Assembly: GCA_051047955.1 (NCBI GenBank) | Contig: JBPGPT010000047.1 | Span: forward strand, 62,001 to 94,342 | DNA: 32,342 bases | Source: Cystobasidiomycetes sp. EMM_F5 | Lineage: Eukaryota | Direction: 5' to 3' | In this document: positions 1,401-28,562 of the stretch, in pieces | How positions within the stretch are numbered: position 1 is the first letter of the stretch | How the letters are laid out: every line of letters begins with the position of its first letter | Notes under the pieces: generated by a model | The model's input: only the letters and a program-made list of their open reading frames with translations | What the model was told of the DNA's origin: nothing | The model's database searches: none | Translations under genes and position numbers: made by a program

Positions 1401-2452
1401 CTACGACTCTGGGGCGAGTTCCTCTCCGCTCGAATCACTGGCACTCGAATCGCCATCCTCGTTTCTGAGCTTTGCGACTTCAAGAGGTGGAAAGGCGGGT
1501 GCTGATCCCTCGGCTTGGGCAACAAATCCTTCCTTGTAGAGGCCATGTCTTCGAATATACTTGCTGACGCAACCAGGAAGGAGGTACTCGATAGACATGC
1601 CTTTTTTGACAAAAAGTCGGACTTTGGTCGACGAGACGTCGTTTCGTACGAGTTGTGGCACCATGTAGATATTGTCGCGATATAACGCCAAGGGAGAGCG
1701 AGAATGTACAGATGACGACGAGAAGATGCTCTGATCGATTTCGGATTCTGCTCGCTCGATAATATATGTGCCGTATTGGCCAAGAATATGGTGAAGCTGG
1801 ATGAGCAAGCAGCATTAGCGAAATGTTTCGCTCGAGTTCCGAGTAAAGCAACACACATCTTCCTCAGCCCAGACCCCAGGTTCGCTCATTGTCTGGATGA
1901 GATCGCTGCCCGCCAGTAGAATAATACGCACGTCCTTTCTCCCGATCTCATTGCCCTGGTCGTCCACAACCGGCACGCCGCCGCGTTTCTTGTTGATCTC
2001 CTCGTGGAAGTGGTCAAGTACCGGAGCCGTAGGAACGTATCTGTCCGAGCGTGCTTCCCAAGGGTCCACCATCAGCCAATCGCTTGTTCTGTCGCATGCC
2101 AGCCTGCACATGTTGTAGCGGTGTGGAGCAGGAGCGAGACCTGGCTTCTTGTATGCATCGTTGACGAGAGATAGATAGCCTCCTACTACTTGAAATTTTG
2201 TATGTAGCCGGGCATCGTCCTTTGCCATTTCAAACATGCGGAGGTGCAGAAAAGTCACTGGACTGAAACTTCCACAAGCGACGAGGACCAGGGGCGTCTT
2301 TGTTGGATCTGAATGTTCATTCCAACAGCATTGGAGCTCGTCAGCGCGCAGTTTGGCAGAGTATCTAGCATTATCCGAAATGCCGCAACTAAATCCAACT
2401 AACCCCGGAGAGACTCCAGTCGTCTGGTAGGGAAAATGTAGTCGCCCTGCAT
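1401..2452 (-). CDS. NMA1: Nicotinamide/nicotinate mononucleotide adenylyltransferase (NMNAT)
   Basis: MQGDYIFPTRRLESLR|DPTKTPLVLVACGSFSPVTFLHLRMFEMAKD (intron 2403-2309), VNDAYKKPGL, WLMVDPWEA, LLAGSDLIQTM, NDVSSTKVRLFVKKGMSIEYLLP. The start could lie further upstream in the same open frame (to about 2750). Confidence 0.95.
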
Positions 2453-2828: not shown

Positions 2829-4283
2829 TCAGTTCAAGCCTACTTTACTGAGAAGTTTAGCGAGCTCATCGCCTTCCCTGTCGTTCGCAGACGCAGGCTT
2901 AGCAGGCTCCTCTTCCTCTTCCTCTGCTAGCTGAATACGAAGACCGAGGAGTCAGCAATCATGGCCTTTCTTTCGCCCTCGTCTTTGCTCACCTTGTCTG
3001 CCTGTACTAATGGCGCCTCTGTACCTCGGACGTCCTCCCCGCCTGTCTCCGCACTGCCGGCAACGACTACCTCCTCGACTTCTCCAGCAGCGTCATCTTC
3101 CTCGCTTGCTACTTCCTCTTCCTCCTCGTCCTCTTCCGCATCATCCTCGACCTCCTCGACATCGTCAATCTCGTCGATTGCGTCTTCAAAGCCATTCGCG
3201 GAGAGAGCTTCACGAAGCTTGACCATGCTATCGTCATCGCTTTCGACTCGGTTGCCGTTCAATTCGACTACTGAAAGCTGCTTGAGGTGAAGCCGGACTG
3301 CGTCAGCAAGCACGTTGATCGCTCTGACGTCGACCTCGTCCGACTGGAGTTTCAGACTCTCTAGCTCTTTGTTCCTCCCCTCCAGCAGCGCATTCGTCAA
3401 AGCTAGAGCGCCTTTCGGTCGCAACAGGCAGTCTGACAGGTTTAGGTGTTTTAGTCTTGGCCAGCTTTTTAAGGATTTCGCAATGGCAGAACTGCCAGAG
3501 TAGGCCGCAGTGTTGTCTTGCAGATCCAACGTTTCCAAGTTTGGACAGTTCTGCAATCCTCTAGCCAGAGCAGCAATGCCCTCCATGCGGATACCATTCT
3601 GTACCATACGTACTTCGCGCAGACTTGTGCCCAACGCAGCGTATGCTTGAGCAAAGAAGGGAGCTGACCCATTCTCCAGGCGATTCCGACCACAGACTAC
3701 TGTTGCAATGCGTTGCGATGGCGAAGTGCTTTTGGCGTTGTTGAGCAATGCTTTCGCAATGACTGTGCCCCCCGCCGGACCCATTCCGTTGTTGAGAAGT
3801 TTAAAGACGGAAAAGTATTTGTTCCCCGTGATGAATGGGACCATGGGATCCGCAACGCGTCCCCCGAACGCATTGTCGGATAGGTCCACCTCGACGAGCG
3901 TATCAATTTCGACGAGTGCGTCACACAGCGCCTGGAGAGCCTGAGGAATCTCGGTAATCAGGCGACCTGTAAATATGTCTGCAAAGTCTGCAATCTATCC
4001 AGCAAATACACCATTCAGCCGCTTTGTCGCATAATTTCAGACGCCACTTGTATTGATTGACCTCGAGGTGTTTTTTGGTCTTGATGATTTCTGCAAGATC
4101 CTGGCACGCCTCGACTCCGAGCGTGTTTCCTCCCAGGCGAATCTCTCTGACATCGCTGCCCATGTCGGCCAACACTTTGCAGTACGGCGCAATGTCGTCC
4201 TTGGAGGTCAGCTTGAGGCCTTTGCCATGGATGCTGAAGACGCCGTCTGCAGCCTGCGTAACATCTGCGGTCGTGGATGCCAT
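2829..4283 (-). CDS. RNA1: Ran GTPase-activating protein (LRR domain plus acidic tail)
   Basis: FSIHGKGLKL, LGGNTLGVEAC, ADIFTGRLITEIP, VDLSDNAFG, CGRNRLENGSA, QNGIRMEG, LDLQDNT, followed by a long Asp/Glu tract. Last exon is LAEEEEEEPAKP...LLSKVGLN* with stop at 2829-2831. Confidence 0.95.
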
Positions 4284-9070: not shown

Positions 9071-10337
9071 TCAAGTATACGGCCCAACCTCCTGTAGATC
9101 AATTCCGCGGCGGTGACAATGTTGCCGGATCTGCTTCTGGTGGGGACCTCTTTCGAGTTGACGGGATACCCGCAGTATTTGCAAGGTCGGTATCCAAGCA
9201 TCATCCGCCAAACACTGCTCAATACCGGTGTCTGGACCGGCATCTCCATATGGCCAGTCTATCTCCAGCTGCAGTAAAGAAGAGAGCGGTTTTAAATACG
9301 ATAGTGGTCCTCCAGACTCCGCGAATGCGCGGGCACAGAAGCTTAGTTTCGTGAGATTTGGCAGCGTCTTGACAAACCTTGCGCTATCCTCGAAATGCCA
9401 TTCGGATGTGGTGTTATATTCATCCAAGACCAGGATCGTCAGGGAAGTAAGTTGCGGCCCGCACACTTCCAACAGCGGAACAAGCGACAGTAAGAGCGAC
9501 GGCAGCTCCTCCGCACTGCAGTCCATGTGAATCAATCGTGGAGCGTTCGCCAGTATAGAGGCGTACAATCCCATGGCATCAACAGCTGCAGGCGGCTCGC
9601 AGAATTTAATACGCTCCAAATAGGGAAACTGCACTGTTTCCCCATGTGACCATGCTGGGACTATGTCGATAGGTATGTCAAGGTCCAGTTCGATAATGAA
9701 TGTGGAGACGATAATAAGCATTGCACGAATCTGCAAGATTTGCGCCTGATGTTCCTGTTCGCTTTCCCAGTGACAAGCCCGAATCTCCAAAGTCCGGAGT
9801 CGTCGCGTATCGAGTGAATGGAAAATATCAGCTGACACGGGCGTTCTGGTCATGCCGATGGTGATACAGACAGGCGCCATGCGTTGGGGTGTAGACCCGC
9901 TTCCAGCATCGCCCGGCATGCGTGCCCTTCGCTGGCGAGAGTCATTCCTATCTGCTGAGTATATGCCGATGTTCTGGATGCTATCGACCAATTGGCGCAA
10001 ACGGGGGGATACCGGCCAGCGTTCGGAAGCGAGATCCGCCAACTCGGTCACCGACATTGCGCGATAACTAATGCCTAACGATGTAATGGCCTGGCATACC
10101 GCAGAGGACACAACTGCATAGGCTGCGCAGGCGCAGACCGCTACGAGTCAGCTCGGGAAAACTCGCAGCACATTGTGATATCGTCACGCTACCGAGTCGA
10201 GATTCGCCGAGACTTATATAGGAGAAGATTTCAGCAAGAACGACGTGCGGAAGATCTGAGAATCCTGTTTTGGCGCGAACGACAGGCTGGCATTGGACTG
10301 GGACAATGCCCTGAATAAGCTCATGGCCGCCGGACAT
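9071..10337 (-). CDS. F-box-like / LRR-like protein (family 1, copy B)
   Basis: GFSDLPHVVLAEIFSYI F-box-like start and a phase-1 intron at the same position as in copy A. Aligned blocks: AYAVVSSAVCQAITSLGISYR vs NYAPVCSRVCDAVTSIGIPFR, NAPRL, and IRQHCHRRGIDLQEV vs IREICSRRDIQLELV. Alternative ATG at 10409. Confidence 0.7.
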
Positions 10338-10575
10338 GTGTGCGTGTGTGGTGGGTATAGTCACAATCGATGCAGCTGCTGTTAGTAGCCCACGTCGTAC
10401 GTCGTACACATGTCCTCGGGCGGCGCCGCCCTATGATTATTATCGGACGCTTTAGCGGGATTAGCATTAGTTATCAGCGAGCGTATACGTTACTGTCAGT
10501 AATATTAAGAAAATGTCAGCTGTCCTGGCCTAATAAGCCGTCATTATGCCTGCTTTCGAGTTTGTAATGGACCAA

Positions 10576-10581
10576 CACGTG
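10576..10581. promoter_or_regulatory. CACGTG E-box, candidate Pho4-type site upstream of PHO81-like gene
   Basis: CACGTG lies about 160 bp upstream of ATG 10741. PHO81 is a Pho4 target in Saccharomyces. A single hexamer is weak evidence. Confidence 0.4.
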
Positions 10582-10740
10582 CGCTTTCGGACCATGTATA
10601 GCCTGCCGCGCAAATGATTGTATGGCAAGCCTGCTCTGCGACGATGCTGAAAACATGAGAAAGGCGACACTTTCCAAGTCGCAAAGCCTCCCGCGTTTCC
10701 TGCGCTCGTCCAGCCTGAGTAGGGCCGTCATCCGGGACAA

Positions 10741-13700
10741 ATGAAGGTGAATTATCGAATCCGGCTAGCGGGGTGCGAACGAGTCTGACAAAGTTGTTGC
10801 GCAGGTATGAAGCGGAGCTGCTGGTTTGTAGAACACATCAGGTCTCAGCTAACCTCTGACGGCTTGGACAGTTTGGAAAGCAGCTCGCGGCGCAGCAGGT
10901 GCCAGTATGGGCTCGATTTTACATTGACTACAAAGGCTTGAAGAAGGTAGGAAGCTTTCCCGTTGCTGATACGGAGCACTGAAGCTGGATATACGTGCAT
11001 TCGCAGATTATCAATTCACTCGCCAAAGGCCGCCCAGCTGATGCAGCCCTGTTAGCCGCTGGGTATCGACCACCGTCGCATACGAACGCAAATCACAATG
11101 ACGTGCCTCAGGCTGCGCAAGAGTCCGCTGCGGAACTGCATGCCGCAGCGACGAGCCTGCAAAGAACCCCAAGCAGTCTTCACCCGGAAGCATCAGGCGA
11201 AAGTGCCCTACTGCAAGCACATAAAGCGGCATTCTTCTTCAAGCTGGAACGAGAGTTAGAGAAGGTCAATTCTCTGTACTTCATTGCTCAAGCCTGCAAA
11301 GCTGATATTGAGTCAATCTTCAGATCAATGCATTCTATCTGCAGAAAGAGTCTGAATTCAAGAGTCGGATGCGTGCACTCATTGACAAGCGCAAGACGAT
11401 ACAGACACATCTAGGAGGTACGCTATCTCGCGAGTCAGCCGCTTTCAATGCGTTATACGATGGTCTCCGCTACTTTGAACGCGATCTCAGTAAACTGCAG
11501 GTAAGCCAGAAGTTGCCCGAATTGTCTTATTAGCAGATTGCTCAATCCTTCACTCCCCAGAATTATGTGGAGATGAACGCTACTGGCTTTCGCAAGATCC
11601 TGAAGAAATGGGACAAGCGGTCCAAATCGTCTACTAAAGAATTGTATCTATCGCGACAAGTGGATGTGCAACCCTGTTTCAATCGGGAAGTCATAAGCGA
11701 ACTCTCCGACACGGCGGCCGCCAATATTCGCAAGCTTGAAGGACTCTGTACGCCCCGCGGTGGGGAACATACCATAGATCCCGCGGCCGATGGCATCCTG
11801 AGCGAACGGAAAATCAACGTTGCTCTTTCGGCTACGGATGGGCAAGATGACGTCCTGAGTGACTTGGAAACGGAACTCATTGCCGCAATTCGAGCCAAAA
11901 ACAAGCACGCAGTTGACAATATCATGAGCGGACTCCCAAATGCAGATGGACTCGACAACGAGGTGCATCTGCAACTAGCGCGGATCTTTTGGCGCGCAGC
12001 AATCTCAGAAGATCCCGCGAGTCCTGCCCTCCTCGATCGCTCTCGCCTCAACTTCACATTTGTGGACGACATCAATGGTCGCACGCCGCTCATCACCTCA
12101 GCTGTGAAAGGCAGACTAGATCTCGTACGCCTGTGCATTGACAATGGCATCGCTGTGGGACATCGTGACATTTATGGCAGAGAAGCACTACATTATGCCG
12201 CTATGGTCAGCCGGGAAGTCTGTTCATATCTCATTCAGCAGGGCGCAAGCGTAGATGCGATTGACTTTGATGGCCAGAGTCCGCTCATTTACGCTATTCT
12301 GCATGGCGAAGTCGAGTGCGTCAGAAGTCTCATCAGGAACCGCACGTCGTCTCAGCGACCAGCAGGAGAGTCCGTCTTACCGCTGTCGCAGGCAGCCAAA
12401 CAAGGTGTCGTACCGATCGTGTCGTTACTCTTGGAGCATGGCCATGCGATTGTACCAGACGCGTCTGGCTTCCTGCCGCAGCATATTGCTGCAAAAGAAG
12501 GGCATGTTGAGGTGCTGGACATCCTTCTCAGAGCAGGCGCAAGCATAGATGCGCAGGACAAGTTTGCAAATTGGACACCTCTGTTCCATGCTGCGAATGA
12601 AGGTCATATTGATTGCGTACGAGCATTGATGCGAGCTGGCGCGAGTGTCACGGCCATCGACGATCAAGGGAAGACTGCTCTACACCACGCCGCTTGGAGC
12701 GGACATCCGCAGCTGGTTACCATACTTCTGCAAGCAAGTCCGCCTGTCCGGCCGAAAGTCACATCGCCGACGCCTCTGCAGCCTCGCAAACGCACAGCGG
12801 CAGACGTGGTCAATGACGATATGGATCTCGATAGCGATATGATACCCGATCTCTCTCTGCCGCCGCCTGCACTACCTTTACGCACGTACGGACACGGCTA
12901 CCTCGACAATAAATCCAGCCTTGTTCAAATCACTCTCGGGCATCCTACAACCACTTCGCAGCAGGTTGCTCCCATGCGTTTCCATCGGCAAGATCAGCCT
13001 TCTTCCACTAAGCTTGTTGTAAGCTCACAGCAAGACACGCTTGGCGCTCCTCACACCGTCATGCTTCCGCTCGGTGACGACAGGGAAACTATTTCTATCT
13101 TTATAGACTCCTTGAGCACCTTCACCTTGACCATCGACGTTTTTCCCACTTTCGGCTCGCGGCTATTCGGCAGAGCTGTCTGTCTACCGGGAACATTCTC
13201 GGATCTGAAGAGTGTAGAAGCTTACACAATACCGGTTCTGGACACGCATCTGAACGTCGTAGGAGAAGTCAACTTTGAAGCCAGCTACATTCAACATTTC
13301 GAAAATTTGCAGTTGGCGATAGGCGGTCGTTTGGAGACGTACTGGAAGTCGACATCGACCGAACCGCCGCCAATCAGCAAATTACTCGGCAGCAAGCCAC
13401 TTGCTCCTGCTCAAGACTCATCCTTCCTTACCGCGTCCTCGCTCGAGGGTGACTACGTCAAAGTTGTCGTCCAAGTGACGCGTGATTACGTTCCTGTCAC
13501 TTTCCCACGGTGGCAGCTTCCCCCAGAAATGTATGATCTGATGCTAAATGCTACGACTAGTCGGCAGCTCGGCGCCCTCGCAGCCATCAACAGTCAAACA
13601 CTTCAGCAAGCCACTTTGCCACGAACGAGTTCGCCGCATGACTGGTACCGGACCCTTAGCGGTGTGATCGCACCTCTACAAGACGTGTTTGCGGTGAGTG

Positions 13701-14411
13701 CGACTTCTACCTGGGTCGATGTCTTTACTCATGCGTGCCATTGATCACAGGTATTGCCTGACGATCTTGGCCTCAATATCGAAGTGCGGTATCCTACACC
13801 CTCCGACTGTTCCAGATTGGACATACGAGCGCCGATCGAAGTCAATACCTTTATCGACGCGATCCTTGCAGTAGTGTATGCGAATACATTGGCAAGCACA
13901 GGAAAACCACGTCGAATCATCTTTTCGTCCTTCTCACCGGCGGCCTGTGCTGCTCTCAACTGGAAACAGCCCAACTGTATGCATACTCTGCCTGGTCACA
14001 CACATTCTGCCCGATGCTGACATCTGTGCATTACCTAGATGCTGTTCTATTTTCAAGCTATTGCGGCCTGTCTCGAAGCACGCCAGAAGGTCAGCTCAAT
14101 CCGCCGCATCGGACAGAGCTGGACAAAAGGTGTACAAGCATTGAAGGGGCTGTCAAGTTCGCAAAGGCGAACAATCTCCTTGGCGTGTCACTCGACGCTG
14201 CAATTATTGTAAGCATGCTTCACGAAGGTCTGTGCCTGTATATCCGCCTGACTTTCGGGTTCCCCTTGCCCTTTCTGCGCAGATGCAAGTGCCCTCGCTC
14301 GTTACCAGCATCAAGGAGACTGGCATATTATTGGCGCTATTTGGAGCAGGTGCAGCGACGTTGCCCAATGTCGATGCCTATGCTCGGTCGGACGGCGTCC
14401 TCTCTGCTTGA
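10741..14411 (+). CDS. PHO81: SPX-ankyrin-GDPD-like CDK inhibitor (Pho81/Nuc-2 family)
   Basis: SPX domain: MK|FGKQLAAQQVPVWARFYIDYKGLKK|IIN, FFFKLERELEK|INAFYLQKE, NYVEMNATGFRKILKKWDKRSKS. Ankyrin repeats: GRTPLI, GQSPLIYA, WTPLFHAANEGH, GKTALHHAA. Also PPPALPLRTYGHGYL and a GDPD-like C-terminus (RIIFSSFSP, LNWKQPN, AVKFAKANNLLG). Stop TGA at 14409-14411. Confidence 0.95.
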
Positions 14412-15015: not shown

Positions 15016-15804
15016 ATGCGCACATACACCACATTTGCAGTAGCCGCCATCGCAGCTGTAGTATCCGTGAACGCGGCAGCTCTTGTTGCTCGACAGAATC
15101 CTCCGGCATGGTGAGCGTTGCTTGTAGCAGAATATTACTGCTTCCATCTTATCCGTTTTTCATTTCCAGCTTCCTTCCATGCATCGCTTCTTCAGCCGGC
15201 AGTATCGGATGCTCGCCAGTGAGTTGGATGCAACTTGAAAGACGCCAAAGCGATTGCTGAGCCAACACTCTTCTTGCACAGAACGATGCACAATGCTTGT
15301 GCTCTTCGACAGCCTTCATTAACACCGTAGCTGTCTGCTTCGCCAAGCAATGCAACTCAGCTGATGCGCAGACCGGTACGCTTTTGGGCCAACAGGTTCG
15401 TCTTCAGGATTGTTTCCAGACTGGCAGCAGGATACTGATCTTGTCTTGCTCGACGACAGCTTTGCGCGCAGATCGGCATTTCCGTCACTATTCCTGCTGC
15501 TGCCGCCTCGGCCCTGGCATCTGGTAGTACCGGTGTATCCGGGAGCGGCGCGGGAACTACATCTTCAAGAGCATCTTCATCTGCCGCATCTTCTTCTGTT
15601 ACATCTTCGTCCTCGCGCCCAGCTTCCTCTAGCTCGGCCGCACCAGCTGCACCCACCAGTGCACCATCAAGCAGCGCCGCTCCAGCTTCTGCGGCAGCTC
15701 CTGCGTCCACTTCAACCAAGCCGAACAACAGCGCTTCGAGTCTTGTAGCTAGCGGCGCCCTGGCCGGTCTTGCGGTTATCGGTGCCGTCTTCGCAGCACT
15801 ATGA
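15016..15804 (+). CDS. CFEM-domain, Ser/Ala-rich, probably GPI-anchored cell-surface protein
   Basis: Signal peptide MRTYTTFAVAAIAAVVSVNA; 8-Cys CFEM (PAC|FLPCI...GCSP|NDAQCLCSS...VCFAKQC...|LC); S/A/T stalk; hydrophobic tail NNSASSLVASGALAGLAVIGAVFAAL*. A probable 5'-UTR intron lies at about 14910-14984. Confidence 0.9.
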
Positions 15805-19339: not shown

Positions 19340-19650
19340 CTCTGGTGTTGAATATGTATCGTATTTCTAGCTCGACTCCAATGTATTTTGGATACTCTCG
19401 ACTCTCGAAATGGCCAACCAGAAACCTGAATGAGGAATGACCACTGCTGCGACTCTGACAGTCAAGATCTGAGTGGAATTGAGTCACCTTGACGGCTGGC
19501 ATCAAGAAGCATTGTTTCGCGTCAAATTGGATGGCCGCAGAGTAATAACAGACCACGCTCGTTTCTGAAAGACGCACGGCAGCTTTGGTGGATATCCAGC
19601 TTCAGGTGGAGCATACGGTCCACTCCACGACTTGCATACCATCGCTCGCA

Positions 19651-21895
19651 ATGGCTTCCACCAAGGACTTCTTGTCCATTCAAAGCGCGACCGCAGGACC
19701 ACCTCCGGCTCCGAGCTATGCTGGACTCGTCAAGACCGTACTAAAGTATCGCCAGAAGCGTGTCTACATCCTCGCATTTGCTGGGACGGCAGTCTTGTTG
19801 CCGCTCGCAACATTTCCAGTAGCGGGACTCGGTGTGTAACGACCATGTCAAATTATAAGACAAGTAGACTGCAATGCCTGGCTGACATTCAGACGTTCGA
19901 AACAGATGCCATACTAGCTTGGTTGTATCCCACGGCCTGGGCAGTACTGTTGCTCGGTTGGGTTAGTACATTGCCAGTCTTCGTCGCTCGAAAGCAGTAC
20001 CTCTCCGCAACGCCAGCTGCACACAAGGACCGTATATCTGCGTACTATGCTCTCCTCACCCTCCGTGCCGCAAAATTTACATTCCTGGCTTATAGCATAG
20101 GCGCTGCTCTTTTCACGTCAGCTTACGTTTTTATGCTTACCTGGCTGGTTCCGACCCGATCCTACCTGGCCCTAACGAGAACGCCAGGACGTGATCTCAT
20201 CGCAATCAACGAACGCTGTGTCTACATCGCTGTCTGTGTGTTGGCCTCGACCGCAACCTACGCCATCCGACAAATTCTAGCAAACAGGCAAATTCTCAGA
20301 TTCGATGCTGAGCAGGTGAGCTATAATCGATTGCGTTCCACGATCGTCGTGGTTCTCAACTTCCTTCATGTGCTTAGCATACCCTTGCGTCGCGGTTACA
20401 AGCCCGATTGAGCAAGAACGCGCCTGCTTGCCTGGCTACGGCTGTATCATCCAACTTTACGGCGCTAGGCTTGTACTTATTGCTCAAGAGGTCTGCATTG
20501 CGATTCATCATTTATCGTATACCAGGTGGCCGCATTCTTAGGTTAGTTGGTCTTACTTTCCGGTGCTTCTGGCCCCAGCTGACTCCTATGTTTACATCCG
20601 ATAGACCATACCTGCTCAGCATGCTTCGTGCGAACCATGTGACGGCATCTTTAATACTTGCGGCACTTTCTGCTTCGATTTCCTTCCTTTTACTTGTCGA
20701 GCTTGCGAACAGCCTAGCGGATGTGTACTACTCCCAGGTATGCAATTTTTTTGCGCATGACGTGTTTGGGCCGATCAAGCTAATGCGCATTCAGCCAATG
20801 CTATTGTCAGCCTACTCAGCAGATCCTCGCGGTAGCCTTGTGAACGGCTTGCGAGATGGCGATCCATATATCCGGAGGTTTGCATATCTTGAATTAGCGC
20901 AAGTATGCTCATCCGATGCATCGCGCCGTATTGATATGTTCACCGATATCAAAACGCATACATACGAGGCTGTAGTAAAGGAATGTCTTTTGCAACTAGG
21001 AAGGTCGTACCGTAATCTGCAAGGGCGAGGTGGCAATCCGCGATCTGCTGCTCCTTTAGCTGCTCGGGCTACCGGGACAGGCGGTTCTGCAAGTCCTCAA
21101 GATTCCCATCGGATACCCATCGCCAAGGAGCCCGCGTTCGCACCTTCCAGACTGTCTGGTCTGGAGAAAATCGCCTCATGGGTGAACACTTTGACTGGCT
21201 CGCAATCTTCACCTTCACAGACTGGTACCGCAATTAAGGCTGCCCTCGTTGCGCCGTCAGCGGCATCTGCACTGGCAAGTGTGCCGCCGATCCTCCAGAG
21301 GCGTTTACCCGATGCCGTCAAGACCGCTGCCACAACGGTGGACAAGAAGGTTGAGAATGCGCAAGCCATCGTACAAAGGGCAGAAAAGACGGTATTCGAT
21401 CGCTTCGAAGCCTTGACGCCTCGGTCAATAGCAAAATCCGCTGGGTATAAACATCTTTTTGACGCACAGATAGCTGCAGATGTGGCTCGATGCCTCCCAA
21501 ATGCAGATCTCGACAAGTCTGCGGCAATTGCACTCGGGTCTCTGTTGATGGCGTCAATCAAAGAAGATCAGTACGGCGTGGCGCAAGCCGATATCGCGAA
21601 GGTACTAGAAGCCTTCGTGCTGTATATGAAAGTGGTAGACGGCTACATCGTCGAGCTCAAGCAGTCTGTTGAGAAAGGCTTGTATGCGCAAGGTGCGGTG
21701 GAAACAACAGTCCATTCCATCGTTCGGCCCCTGTCGGAGGGTACGCTGTGCATTCAAGTAGCTGGCCCGTGACTAAATTCTTGTTCGACAGCTCTTCGGA
21801 ACAATGTAGTCGGCATCTTGCATACATTCGGGCCATACTTGCACGAAATCAAATTTCCACCGCACATTGCAGCACAATTGCAAGATTTGGTCTGA
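19651..21895 (+). CDS. NDC1: Nucleoporin NDC1 (transmembrane nucleoporin)
   Basis: Several N-terminal hydrophobic segments, INERCVY, FAYLELAQVCSSDASRRIDMFTD, and the hallmark ALGSLLMASIKEDQYGVAQADIAKVLEAF. Last exon is ALRNNVVGILHTFGPYLHEIKFP...*. Confidence 0.88.
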
Positions 21896-21934: not shown

Positions 21935-23891
21935 TCAATCCCCGCAAGCGGCGAAATCGAAGACCAAAACAGCGTCGTTGGCAGTATGCCATCGACCAGT
22001 TGGGTCCTGGTTCCCGATATTTGCTGCATCTGCGGGATCTTCTTGAGATCTCAAGCCGTGTACGGCATCGACGACCGCGTGCGCCAATACGCGACCATCG
22101 GTGTTGATCCACACCATGCGCATATTTTCCTCAGAAACGGTAAACACAATTCGACAGTATTCTGGACGGTCGAGGCCGGCGGAAGCTCCAGTCGCGTAAA
22201 TAGCTGTCGAATCGCATTCAAGACGCGTCACGCCGTTGAATCTGCTGGTTGGCACACACCCGAGAGATCGGATTCTCGGCAGATTTGCGTGATGGTCATT
22301 GAGTTCAGATAGGTCGAAGGTGTACAGGACGTTTGCGCCTGGCAAACGCTAGGTCTAATATGAGCCGAAAATGTTGTTATCGCGAGAATAATCAATCAGC
22401 ATACCTGCGCTGTGAAAGCCACTACAATACGAATCAGTGTCCATTGCAATCTGTCCACAAACCAAAAGTATCTCACCTCTACCGTTCTCGACACAAACAT
22501 TGGTTATCCGCATGTTACCAGCAAGCTCGGCGTCCCCCTCAGCATCTAATTGGTAGAACGACAGTTTGACCAGGCTATCGCGACGAACATCGGGCGTCAT
22601 GCTGGACCAGCTTCGAAAATTCCGGAGCCACAGCAATTCACCGTCTGTAGTTCCGGCTATGAGATGCTTTCCATCCAGCGAATGATGCACGCATGTTACG
22701 AGGCACTGCAATGTCAACATGCGCGAAAAGAATTGGCTTCCATTCAGAGCTGTAGCGCCAGGGAAAAGTTGTGGATCCAGCAAGTTTAGTCTGGCTCCGG
22801 TTCGGCGATCAGTCAGAGTGATGGAAGAATTGGCTTGTATGATGCACACTTCGTCAATTTCGATATAGCTATAACCGGGCCGGGCCTCGAGTGCATAGTT
22901 TTCTGCAAGCTGACCACTGACCAGATCAAAGACGCATAGTCTCCTTTCCCTGTGTGATTCCGTCACCAAGTACGGATATCGAGCTTTGTATGAGGAAATA
23001 CGACAAAGAGGTGTAATCTCGTGAACGGGTACAAGGGCGTGAATGTTGCCGGTAGTGATATCATCGCACACTCGAAGGACGTGTATCTTGAAGCTGTCGC
23101 AGTCTGGGAAGGCAGCCATAGCTCAGTATACAATGTCCAGTCTTTGCCCTCAAGTTGCGTACATATAAGCAGGCCATGCGTGAACTCTATATGCGTATAC
23201 TGGCCTCCACCTTGCCGTAGAGTCTGGGGATGACGAGCCTCGGCGGACGGTGTGAAAAGCCTCGTGGACTCAATAGGCAGTGCCCAAATATCGTCGAGAG
23301 TCTCACCATCTTGCATGTAAACTGTGGGGCAGGCATGTTTTACTTTGCGATTCGCAGCGAACCAACTTGCGCCAGCCAACACTTACCACTTGCAAGAATG
23401 ATACGTCTTTCCGGGCAGACCTTGAAGCGCCAGACATCCCGTTCTGCATGTCGAATTTGGCAGGCTCTGACTACTGGTACACCGCGAGTCCAATTCGCTG
23501 CCAGCCTGTGTTTCAGCCGGACTTTGAAAGAGACTATCAGAACACGCTCTGGAAGAACATCAGATCAATGTATCGCACCAAATTCCTTCCAAGAGCCTAT
23601 GCTTTCGTAGTATGACGATGGCGTCCGCTGGCACGCGACCGCGCGCGCAAGACCTTTCAGATCCGGATAGTCGATAGTGTACCGCGATATGCCAGAGTCA
23701 CTGGCAGTCATCGGTACGTATGCATCGTATTGCAGCTCGGCGACGCCTTGCCATATCGAATCTTCGTTGTCTTTGAGGAGGGCTTGACATGACGCTGACG
23801 CCAGCCCGAAGCGCAATACGTCTAGGGGGGGAAGCAGCTGCAGAATCTGCACAATGATTTCATTTGGCAGGAGTGTCAACAGTTGGTTCAT
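21935..23891 (-). CDS. F-box protein with putative beta-propeller C-terminus (family 2, array copy A)
   Basis: LLTLLPNEIIVQILQLLPPLDVLRFGLASASCQALL F-box. Shared family motifs: YKARYPYL, HSLDGKHLIAG..G.LLW.RNFRSWSSM, DSTAIY, VFDFA*. Confidence 0.85.
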
Positions 23892-26516: not shown

Positions 26517-28488
26517 TCATGATTCCCTTGCCGACTGCGCCGCGAAATCGTAGATCAGGATAGAACCCTCCGTCATATTGGTGCGTTGTGCACGATGGAA
26601 CTCGGGGGAATCCACAGCCCAGACTTCCTCTACCAATGCATCCCCCAGTCTCCCACCATCGTCATACCAACCTAGACGTCGATTGTCATGCTGGTCGGAA
26701 CTCCATGCGCTTGCCTTGAGAGTGTAACGAACGTATATGGCAGCGGCGTCTACGGAAACTTTCTGCCCGACAGAAGTGAAGTCAGTTAGCAATCGTGTTG
26801 CGACCGGCATACTCTGTAGCCTTACACAATCACCATCTGCTATTTGTATGCTTCGTATCTTTGGACGACGATCCATAAAATCTGCAGTATTTTCCCAATC
26901 AAAGAGTTCGAATATGTAGATGGCCGACGGAAGGCCCTGAATTGAAGGAAATATGTCAGTGAATGGTCATGAACGCGAAGCGCTTCGTTCGTCTACTTGA
27001 ACCTGAAATACCACTGCAGCAACCTGTTAACACGAAGCATGTGCGTTTATGTGTGCAATACTGACCTCTACCCTCGCAAATGAAGACATGGTAAATGCCG
27101 AAAGACCTTTCGTTGTCCTCACGTTCAAAATGTAGCCAGACCAAGCTCTTCCGCCGAGCTTCATCGCTTAGGCTTGACCAGTCGCGGAAATTGTGATACC
27201 AAAAGAGGTATCCGCTGTATGTTCCAACAAGCAGGTGCTTGCCATCGAGAGAATGTGCAAGAGCTGTTGTTTGAGGGTAGAGATCAATCTGTGTGAGGCT
27301 GGGGGGAAGCAGCTCAATCGCGGTGCTCCTGTGTCGCTGAATCAACAGGAAGTCGTCATCGTGGCCTACCATGATGCAGTCTGCATCGAAGTCCAAGCGT
27401 GCATCACTGATGAAAGCGACGTAAGGCATGTCGTCATAAGTCTCCAGAAGGCGTCCGTCTTCAAGACTATAAATGAGCCATCGCTGGTCATACTCATCAT
27501 CATCTAAATCATCCTCTACCACAGAGGAGACCAGCAAGTAAGGATACCGGGCTTTGAATCCTGCAATTTGGCCGACCGGACGAATTGCTATGCGATCGTG
27601 GAGGAAGTACTTGTCATTCGGCTCTGATGTCACGCAAAGACGTCCAACGTGAATAGTATGGCGATCCTGGTCGCCTTCAGTGACTTTACAAATCCACTCA
27701 GCTATAGACACCGCACAAAGGTATCAGCAAACACGCACAAACTACCACTTGGTTATCAGTGTAATCGATATAGTAATGCAGAAAATGCCCAGAATGTGTC
27801 GCCAGTACTTGATGTCGGCACGGCTGCTTCTTGGAGTGAATGTCCGACCAGGGGACGGCGAGAACAAGAGAGCGGCTATTCATGCTAATGGGGTCATCTT
27901 ATGTAGGGCTTCAGAATGCAGACCTGACGAAAGCATGCAGCCTTTCGCTCCTACCGGCAAAGAAGAGACCGAGTTGCAGATCTCCGCAGACTTGCAAGGC
28001 GCGTTTGCTCAGCTCAGGGATCGGCCCCAGATTAATCTGACCAGTCTTAAGTGACGGAGTGCCCTTCTTCCAAGCTGACCGGATCTTTTGTTTAGTCTGA
28101 ACTATACACCATGAAATTTGTAGAATCCGAAACGTGGCGGGCGTAAGAGAGATGTCGAACGATAGGATAGCTTTGACCCACCAAACTCATTCCACGTTGT
28201 TGTCTCGCTGTAGCATGTGGAGACAGTTCGCTGGGATGCGATAGCGCGCTGCAATGCCGTCATACCAGGGTACGTGATGCGCTCGAAACCTCTCGTATGG
28301 TCGACAATGGGTGTATGGGCGTCGAAGTACCCTAAGGCTACTTCTCGCCATATCTGCTCTGAAACATTCTGAAAGGCTGCTTGACATCGTTTCGAGGCCA
28401 GTCCGAAGTTGAGGACCTCGACAGGGTTCAGCTGCCCTAAAATCTGTACCAGCACATCGCCGGGCAGGTCAGCAATCATGACTGGCAT
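26517..28488 (-). CDS. F-box protein, family 2, array copy C
   Basis: IADLPGDVLVQILGQLNPVEVLNFGLASKRCQ F-box. Motifs FKARYPYLL, HSLDGKHLLVG, WYHNFRDWSSL, DAAAIY, IYDFA. Confidence 0.85.
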
Positions 28489-28562
28489 CTTTGTAACTTT
28501 GTGCTGGTGTCAGGATCAGTGTCGGAGTTCGGCATAGCATTAGCATCTCCAGCAGCCGTCAA

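Follow-up and report, generated by a model that had tools for sequence, protein, structure and literature searches.

In Drosophila and vertebrates, the ratchet points of recursive splicing lie in long introns of tens to hundreds of kilobases (kb), and the vertebrate sites work through recursive-splice (RS)-exon definition. Here we analyze a candidate recursive splice site of very different dimensions, at the start of the PHO81 gene of the fungus Cystobasidiomycetes sp. EMM_F5. The gene lies on a 32,342-nucleotide (nt) stretch of DNA (assembly GCA_051047955.1, contig JBPGPT010000047.1, positions 62,001 to 94,342 of the forward strand), which is referred to as the window and in whose own numbering all positions are given. 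As at the animal ratchet points, the first ligation at a juxtaposed AG/GT (a slash marks a splice boundary) would restore a 5′ splice site; unlike there, the introns taken out at each step would be minimal ones, recognized by intron definition.

A sequence-only reading of the window, which had drawn attention to this site, placed recursive splicing mainly in long animal introns and stwintrons in Pezizomycotina. That account was incomplete, since recursive splicing has also been demonstrated by experiment in two short-intron fungi, at BOT1 of Cryptococcus neoformans and at SPNCRNA.445 of Schizosaccharomyces pombe. In C. neoformans, the annotated 375-nt intron of BOT1 is divided at a "pivot point" into 210 and 165 nt by zero-nucleotide-exon recursive splicing, with direct observation of junctions, branches and intermediates (Burke et al., bioRxiv 10.1101/224170). 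PHO81 resembles BOT1, as described there, in coming from a basidiomycete yeast with narrow intron sizes, in having a 3′ splice site followed directly by a 5′ splice site, and in giving the same mature mRNA as one-step removal. It differs from BOT1 in its total length of 125 nt, in its halves of modal size (58 and 67 nt), in its position after codon 2 and in being known from sequence alone.

In S. pombe, spliceosome profiling located a zero-length exon in the 336-nt intron of SPNCRNA.445, and two instances are reported (Chen et al., bioRxiv 10.1101/226894). Both there and in PHO81, a 3′ splice site lies immediately beside a 5′ splice site within an intron of a short-intron fungus. SPNCRNA.445 is a non-coding host of a small nucleolar RNA whose arrangement is conserved in sister species, whereas PHO81 is protein-coding and its site has been read only from the DNA.

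Stwintrons, described in Pezizomycotina and Lipomyces, are arrangements in which one intron interrupts a splice element of another, so that the order of removal is fixed, and their authors explicitly set recursive splicing apart from them (PMC5587772, PMC7138796). For Lipomyces starkeyi both one-step and two-step removal are reported as possible, so the two routes can coexist. The PHO81 gap is like a stwintron, as portrayed in these sources, in being a complex fungal intervening sequence made of two U2 intron units, those of stwintrons being removed by consecutive reactions. Unlike in a stwintron, no splice element is interrupted, removal could proceed in either order and the outer intron is canonical in its own right. 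Readings as a [D1,2] or [A2,3] stwintron were rejected: G+GTATG is no donor, the CAG at 10802-10804 is intact, and neither the units nor the outer intron lack a splice element. The PHO81 site is thus best described as a candidate instance of the zero-nucleotide-exon recursive splicing already documented. Among the listed papers on introns of Cystobasidiomycetes, none was relevant by title or abstract.

Two Abutting Intron Units after Codon 2

On the + strand, a gap of 125 nt separates ATGAAG (10741-10746) from TTTGGAAAG, which begins at 10872. The gap divides at CAG/GTATGA (10804/10805) into units of 58 and 67 nt with zero bases between them, as follows.

10741..10746, + strand: coding part of exon 1, ATGAAG, for the Met-Lys with which the SPX domain opens, from the sequence and MKFGK N-termini
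10747..10804, + strand: unit A, 58 nt, with donor GTGAAT, branch motif CTGAC and acceptor GCGCAG
10803..10806, + strand: AG/GT junction of units A and B, the zero-nucleotide exon and candidate recursive splice site
10805..10871, + strand: unit B, 67 nt, with donor GTATGA, branch motif GCTAAC and acceptor GGACAG

The branch motif of unit A occupies 10785-10789, its branch A (10788) lying 16 nt before the acceptor G. Unit B has GCTAAC at 10848-10853, with its branch A at 10852, and another CTGAC at 10856-10860. A full 3′ splice site (CTGAC at 10785-10789, CAG at 10802-10804) therefore abuts GTATGA (10805-10810), which is the arrangement of a recursive site. Joining exon 1, which ends in AAG, to position 10805 would regenerate an AAG/GTATGA donor with G at +5. 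The AGGT of the unit junction (10803-10806) is also present at 10745-10748. These coordinates, lengths and branch motifs are the ones given in the sequence-only reading, which had described two complete, abutting intron units with a zero-nucleotide exon between them.

The same reading had held that both orders of removal give the same mRNA and that keeping either half ruins the frame; the letters of the window bear out both statements. One-step removal, removal of unit A first and removal of unit B first all yield an identical MKFGK mRNA. When the intron is retained throughout, the frame reads MKVNYRIRLAGCERV and then a stop codon, with the same outcome when unit A is retained, and when unit A is out and unit B kept it reads, by eye, MKV and then a stop. 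Half-spliced RNAs thus encode only MKV or a 15-residue peptide. Because these frames stop at once, a functional protein requires removal of all 125 nt.

Two other ways of reading the region were tried and rejected. Extension of exon 1 through unit A is ended by a TAG at 10766-10768. The ATG at 10807, within unit B, fails as a start: the bases that follow its ATGAAG are CG, not GT, and it opens an out-of-frame open reading frame of 44 codons. This ATG belongs to a second ATGAAG at 10807-10812, two bases into unit B (GT-ATGAAG-CGG), which is unusable as an MK exon; it is probably a coincidence, the donor GTATGA itself supplying four of its six bases.

The Gene and Its MKFGK N Terminus

The gene is of the PHO81/NUC-2 type. 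Its annotated product in Cystobasidiomycetes sp. EMM_F5, P0241 (KAL7004459.1; 1074 aa), which falls in the cluster of the window's PHO81 frame, carries the Pfam domains SPX (3.3e-24), Ank_2 (1.7e-51), C2_GDE1 (7.7e-26) and GDPD (4.1e-09). The large downstream frame (11534-13744) matches PHO81/NUC-2-type proteins, 860 of them at E <= 0.001 among the 8000 candidates scored. The closest protein clade is 56-62% identical, and the best named matches, from Geosiphon, Paraglomus and Rhodotorula, are 41-42% identical. A member of the close clade, P0014 (1202 aa, 56% identical), starts MKFGKQLAAQQIPAW...YKGLKKIINSLAKGRPADAALLAAG and has the N-terminus MKFGKQLAAQQ; because its 1202 residues are encoded on a contig of only 4476 nt, it probably derives from a transcript.

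MKFGK is the N-terminus of P0014, P0019 and P0021. In SPX chains of the PDB it runs from residue 1 (5ijj_A, 7d3y_A) or residue 2 (7e40_B), and in the Pfam SPX profile it forms positions 1-5, P0014 being aligned from profile position 1. Pfam domains, P0014 and PDB chains accordingly agree with the earlier assignment of the gene to PHO81 with an SPX start of MKFGK. Within 9801-10871, an ATGAAR with GT or GC after it occurs just once, as the ATGAAG at 10741, and an MKFGK start is obtained only via this exon. The MK/FGK join across the 125 nt is, on these comparisons, well supported.

Upstream, ten ATGs fall within 10410-10655 and none within 10656-10740. The ATG-free interval would fit a short 5′ untranslated region starting after 10655, although it is not significant, about 1.3 ATGs being expected in 85 nt.

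Intron Sizes in the Window and in Orthologous Loci

Seven introns of the window were placed with confidence, six in PHO81 and one in the neighboring Ndc1 gene (20316-20377, placed by Pfam profile continuity). They measure 57, 59, 60, 60, 62, 62 and 74 nt, in keeping with the earlier statement that 125 nt is about twice the usual intron size here. A scan of the window for intron signals alone gave 12 candidates of 50-69 nt against ~4.7 expected from shuffles, a weak result that agrees, weakly, with an intron mode near 60 nt.

For comparison at the orthologous position, we used 80 metagenome loci taken from a contig scan with the SPX region. All are distant, with at most 40.6% identity over the large exon (72 of the 80 have a tblastn match). 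A single intron of 46-71 nt (median 58; 47 distinct sequences) lies right after ATGAAR in 68 of them, at the identical phase-0 position in 67 and one base off in L010; the longest intron at this position is 71 nt. Seven loci (L002-L007, L009) have no intron after codon 2, and the remaining five are truncated or could not be read; in L046, which belongs to these five, an intron of ~59 nt was made out by eye. Judged from these loci, the intron position is old and the intron in orthologues is always single and short. The 125 nt of the window is an outlier, and its halves of 58 and 67 nt lie within the range of 46-71 nt.

Some of these loci show variations of their own. In L010 (2775-2841) the intron is shifted by one base (ATGAA/GTGAGC...TCCAG/GTTC) and MKFGK is still encoded. 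L062 and L080 carry a 52-nt GC-AG intron after ATGAAG, with donor GCAAGT. The seven loci that have no codon-2 intron are Rhodotorula-like (MKFGKTLQ..IFAQNGFPGW), the intron having been lost or never present. An intron that separates KGLKK from IINSL is retained in them and missing from the Agaricomycotina-like loci.

Chance Expectation for the Internal Site

We simulated 40000 introns of 125 nt with the real ends and first-order intron composition and counted internal sites under five post hoc definitions.

Any AG/GT with both halves at least 45 nt: 6.0% of simulated introns
YAG/GT with a CTNA branch 8-35 nt upstream: 1.5% of simulated introns
YAG/GT and CTNA, plus GTNNG or GTNAA: 0.44% of simulated introns
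YAG/GTNNG with CTNAY: 0.26% of simulated introns
YAG/GTRNG with CTRAY: 0.06% of simulated introns

The real 125-nt sequence satisfies all five. In the two strands of the window (64.7 kb), a CTNA branch with YAG/GTNNG occurs 10 times; four of the occurrences read as ordinary exon-intron junctions and one is the PHO81 site. This rate gives ~0.003-0.006 expected occurrences over the 36 positions at which neither half would be shorter than 45 nt. A look-alike on the minus strand, at 22405, was rejected as an ordinary exon-intron junction inside an open frame.

Among the seven confident introns, the acceptor is YAG in 7/7, the donor has G at +5 in 6/7 and CTNAY is present in 4/7. The signals at the internal site, CAG, CTGAC and a GTATGA donor with G at +5, match these in quality. 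Because the halves are of modal size, the orthologous introns are single and short, and the full set of internal signals is rare in simulations, the composite of two modal-size introns is probably real and not a product of chance.

Splicing Route and Alternative Explanations

We propose that the 125 nt represent two complete U2-type introns of modal size that abut at CAG/GTATGA and that many transcripts would lose separately, a proposal to which we give an even chance. That two-step removal would occur in a substantial fraction of transcripts we rate at even or slightly better. In a genome with a narrow range of intron sizes, splice sites would pair across the nearest intron-sized distance, so that many transcripts would lose the units in separate reactions. 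All four signals could be occupied at once, and the allowed pairings would be 10747-10788 (unit A), 10805-10852 or 10859 (unit B) and 10747-10852 (the whole). If branch 10788 were used, the first usable AG would be that at 10803-10804, the AG at 10792-10793 lying only 5 nt from the branch. Removal of unit A first would create the junction 10746^10805 and regenerate AAG/GTATGA as the donor for the second reaction. In the equally legal reverse order, with unit B removed first, the acceptor at 10804 would then be joined to exon 2.

The 125 nt could instead be one ordinary long first intron (10747-10871), removed in a single reaction with donor GTGAAT, the GCTAAC branch and the acceptor at 10871, in which case the internal sites would be fortuitous and rarely or never used. 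We regard this as a serious possibility, though one short of an even chance. The outer sites are canonical, and in annotation at least this genome has longer introns, the public model of the neighboring nicotinamide mononucleotide (NMN) adenylyltransferase gene having one of 95 nt. The loosest simulation definition, any AG/GT with halves of at least 45 nt, is satisfied by 6% of simulated introns. Recursive events are very rare in both fungi profiled (10.1101/224170, 10.1101/226894), and the L. starkeyi example shows that one reaction, as well as two, can remove a complex intervening sequence. However, the full internal signal set of branch, YAG and donor with G at +5 appeared in only 0.06-0.44% of simulations, and the orthologous intron is 46-71 nt in 68/68 informative intron-bearing loci. 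A single intron would need a doubling in length plus chance signals that happen to give two modal-size halves. Nor was there a significant fold that would bring the distant sites together and so shorten the 125-nt intron (z = +1.07; 176/200 shuffles fold at least as well).

Several observations weigh against our proposal of two separately removed units. The outer 125-nt intron is fully canonical on its own, and its one-step removal needs nothing special. In C. neoformans, a single recursive event was reported for the whole transcriptome (10.1101/224170), so that sites of this kind are either rare or seldom used. The site definitions used in the simulations were fixed after the site had been seen, and, as a rough estimate, chance alone should produce a few composites of this kind in a genome that has hundreds of long introns. 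The loci compared for the internal AG/GT are all distant, at no more than 40.6% identity, and a metagenome scan with peptides of the 57-62% identical clade returned 436 pattern matches and no close relative. Units A and B are not alike (69% of 2000 shuffles gave an equal or better score), and nowhere else in the 32-kb window does either unit recur over more than 16 nt, leaving no trace of a route of gain. Finally, the public annotation models the start of pho81 differently.

In that annotation, P0241 starts MPAFEFVMDQH/FGKQLAAQQ, an upstream exon being joined to the acceptor at 10871 via a 293-nt intron (10579-10871), inside which exon 1 and both units would fall.

10546..10578, + strand: rival first exon of the public model (MPAFEFVMDQH), from tblastn placement of P0241 at 100% identity

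Were this model right, translation would start at 10546 and the ATGAAG at 10741, with both units, would be merely intronic. The N-terminus of P0241 does map to 10546-10578 at 100% identity, and the GTGCGC at 10579 is a possible donor for the 293-nt intron. Yet the model does not have the MK that opens SPX in P0014, P0019, P0021, the solved structures and the Pfam profile, and Pfam SPX aligns to P0241 only from residue 12, which corresponds to profile position 3. ATGAAR precedes FGK or FAK, directly or across an intron, in 75/80 loci, which are all that could be read, and an intron of 293 nt is ~5x the local norm. P0241 also carries an 8-residue insert, IAQSFTPQ, which is absent from P0014, P0019 and P0021 and implies a 36-nt intron 4; this combination points to an ab initio model made without transcript support. 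Because of the absent MK, the SPX alignment that begins only at profile position 3 and the IAQSFTPQ insert, the public 5′ end was judged to be wrong, and the public model appears to have a wrong N-terminus and one wrong acceptor. We consider it highly improbable that the public start is the correct one. A micro first exon such as ATGAAG is of the kind that gene predictors miss.

A further possibility, raised in the sequence-only reading, is that the composite serves as a regulatory gate, one half being kept under some phosphate conditions so that MKV or the 15-residue peptide would be made and PHO81 output would fall. The argument for such a gate is one of sequence logic only, in that either retained half ends the frame at once; retention of any first intron would act likewise, however, and orthologous genes function with one intron here or without any. 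We think a gate of this kind very unlikely.

Possible Origin of the Probable Composite and Its Significance

How two units came to stand where orthologues have one can be approached through the same comparisons. Other basidiomycete orthologues have a single, ancient phase-0 intron after codon 2. In PHO81 of the window this intron would have gained a second unit, either by insertion at the AG/GT where the end of the exon meets the old donor or through new sites that appeared in an enlarged intron. The absence of A/B similarity and of copies means that, in the window, there is no sign of tandem duplication or of an introner-like element. The AGGT at both ends of unit A (10745-10748 and 10803-10806) fits an insertion with a 4-nt duplication; it is not independent evidence, because any such composite shows that repeat. 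An intron gain caught in the act, in which a 54-nt insert flanked by AGGT entered the AG/GT of exon 1 and the ancient donor, imposing an obligatory two-step splice with a zero-nucleotide exon whose half-spliced RNA might tune PHO81 output, is an idea that we regard as unlikely. If the insertion reading were true, it would show that, in a short-intron basidiomycete, new introns can use exon-intron junctions themselves as proto-splice sites.

If the internal site is used, Pucciniomycotina would be a third fungal lineage with recursive splicing, and PHO81 would be the smallest such case, a pair of minimal introns and not a long one divided into pieces. It would also offer a clean example of an intron unit gained beside an existing one, because 68 orthologous loci have a single intron at the same place, and would bear on the origins of introns. 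Of particular interest are that both halves are of minimal size and that those 68 loci, by contrast, have one intron each.

Remaining Exons and Introns of PHO81

The rest of the gene was delineated largely by tblastn of P0014 against the window.

10872..10946, + strand: exon 2, FGKQLAAQQVPVWARFYIDYKGLKK, from tblastn of P0014, starting TTTGGAAAGCAG...
10947..11006, + strand: intron 2, 60 nt (GTAGGA...TTCGCAG), from tblastn of P0014
11007..11264, + strand: exon 3, IINSLAKGRPADAALLAAG ... FFFKLERELEK, the remainder of the SPX N-terminal part, from tblastn of P0014
11265..11323, + strand: intron 3, 59 nt, from tblastn of P0014
11501..11560, + strand: intron 4, 60 nt, from the proteins of relatives; the public model has a 36-nt version
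13694..13750, + strand: intron 5, 57 nt
13977..14038, + strand: intron 6, 62 nt, phase 1
14209..14282, + strand: intron 7, 74 nt

Neighboring Genes

Most other long frames of the window had no Pfam match. Those that could be assigned, together with one frame recognized by its pattern, are the following.

1404..2452, - strand: NMN adenylyltransferase, its frame 99% identical to an NCBI protein of Cystobasidiomycetes sp. EMM_F5, with introns of ~95 and ~60 nt in the public model
2927..3994, - strand: leucine-rich-repeat protein
15261..15804, + strand: Cys-patterned frame, then a probable ~75-nt intron from 15396, then a Ser/Ala-rich frame with a hydrophobic tail
19569..21772, + strand: nucleoporin Ndc1, with its 62-nt intron at 20316-20377
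28102..28509, - strand: F-box protein

The product of 15261-15804 looks like a secreted or glycosylphosphatidylinositol (GPI)-anchored wall protein.

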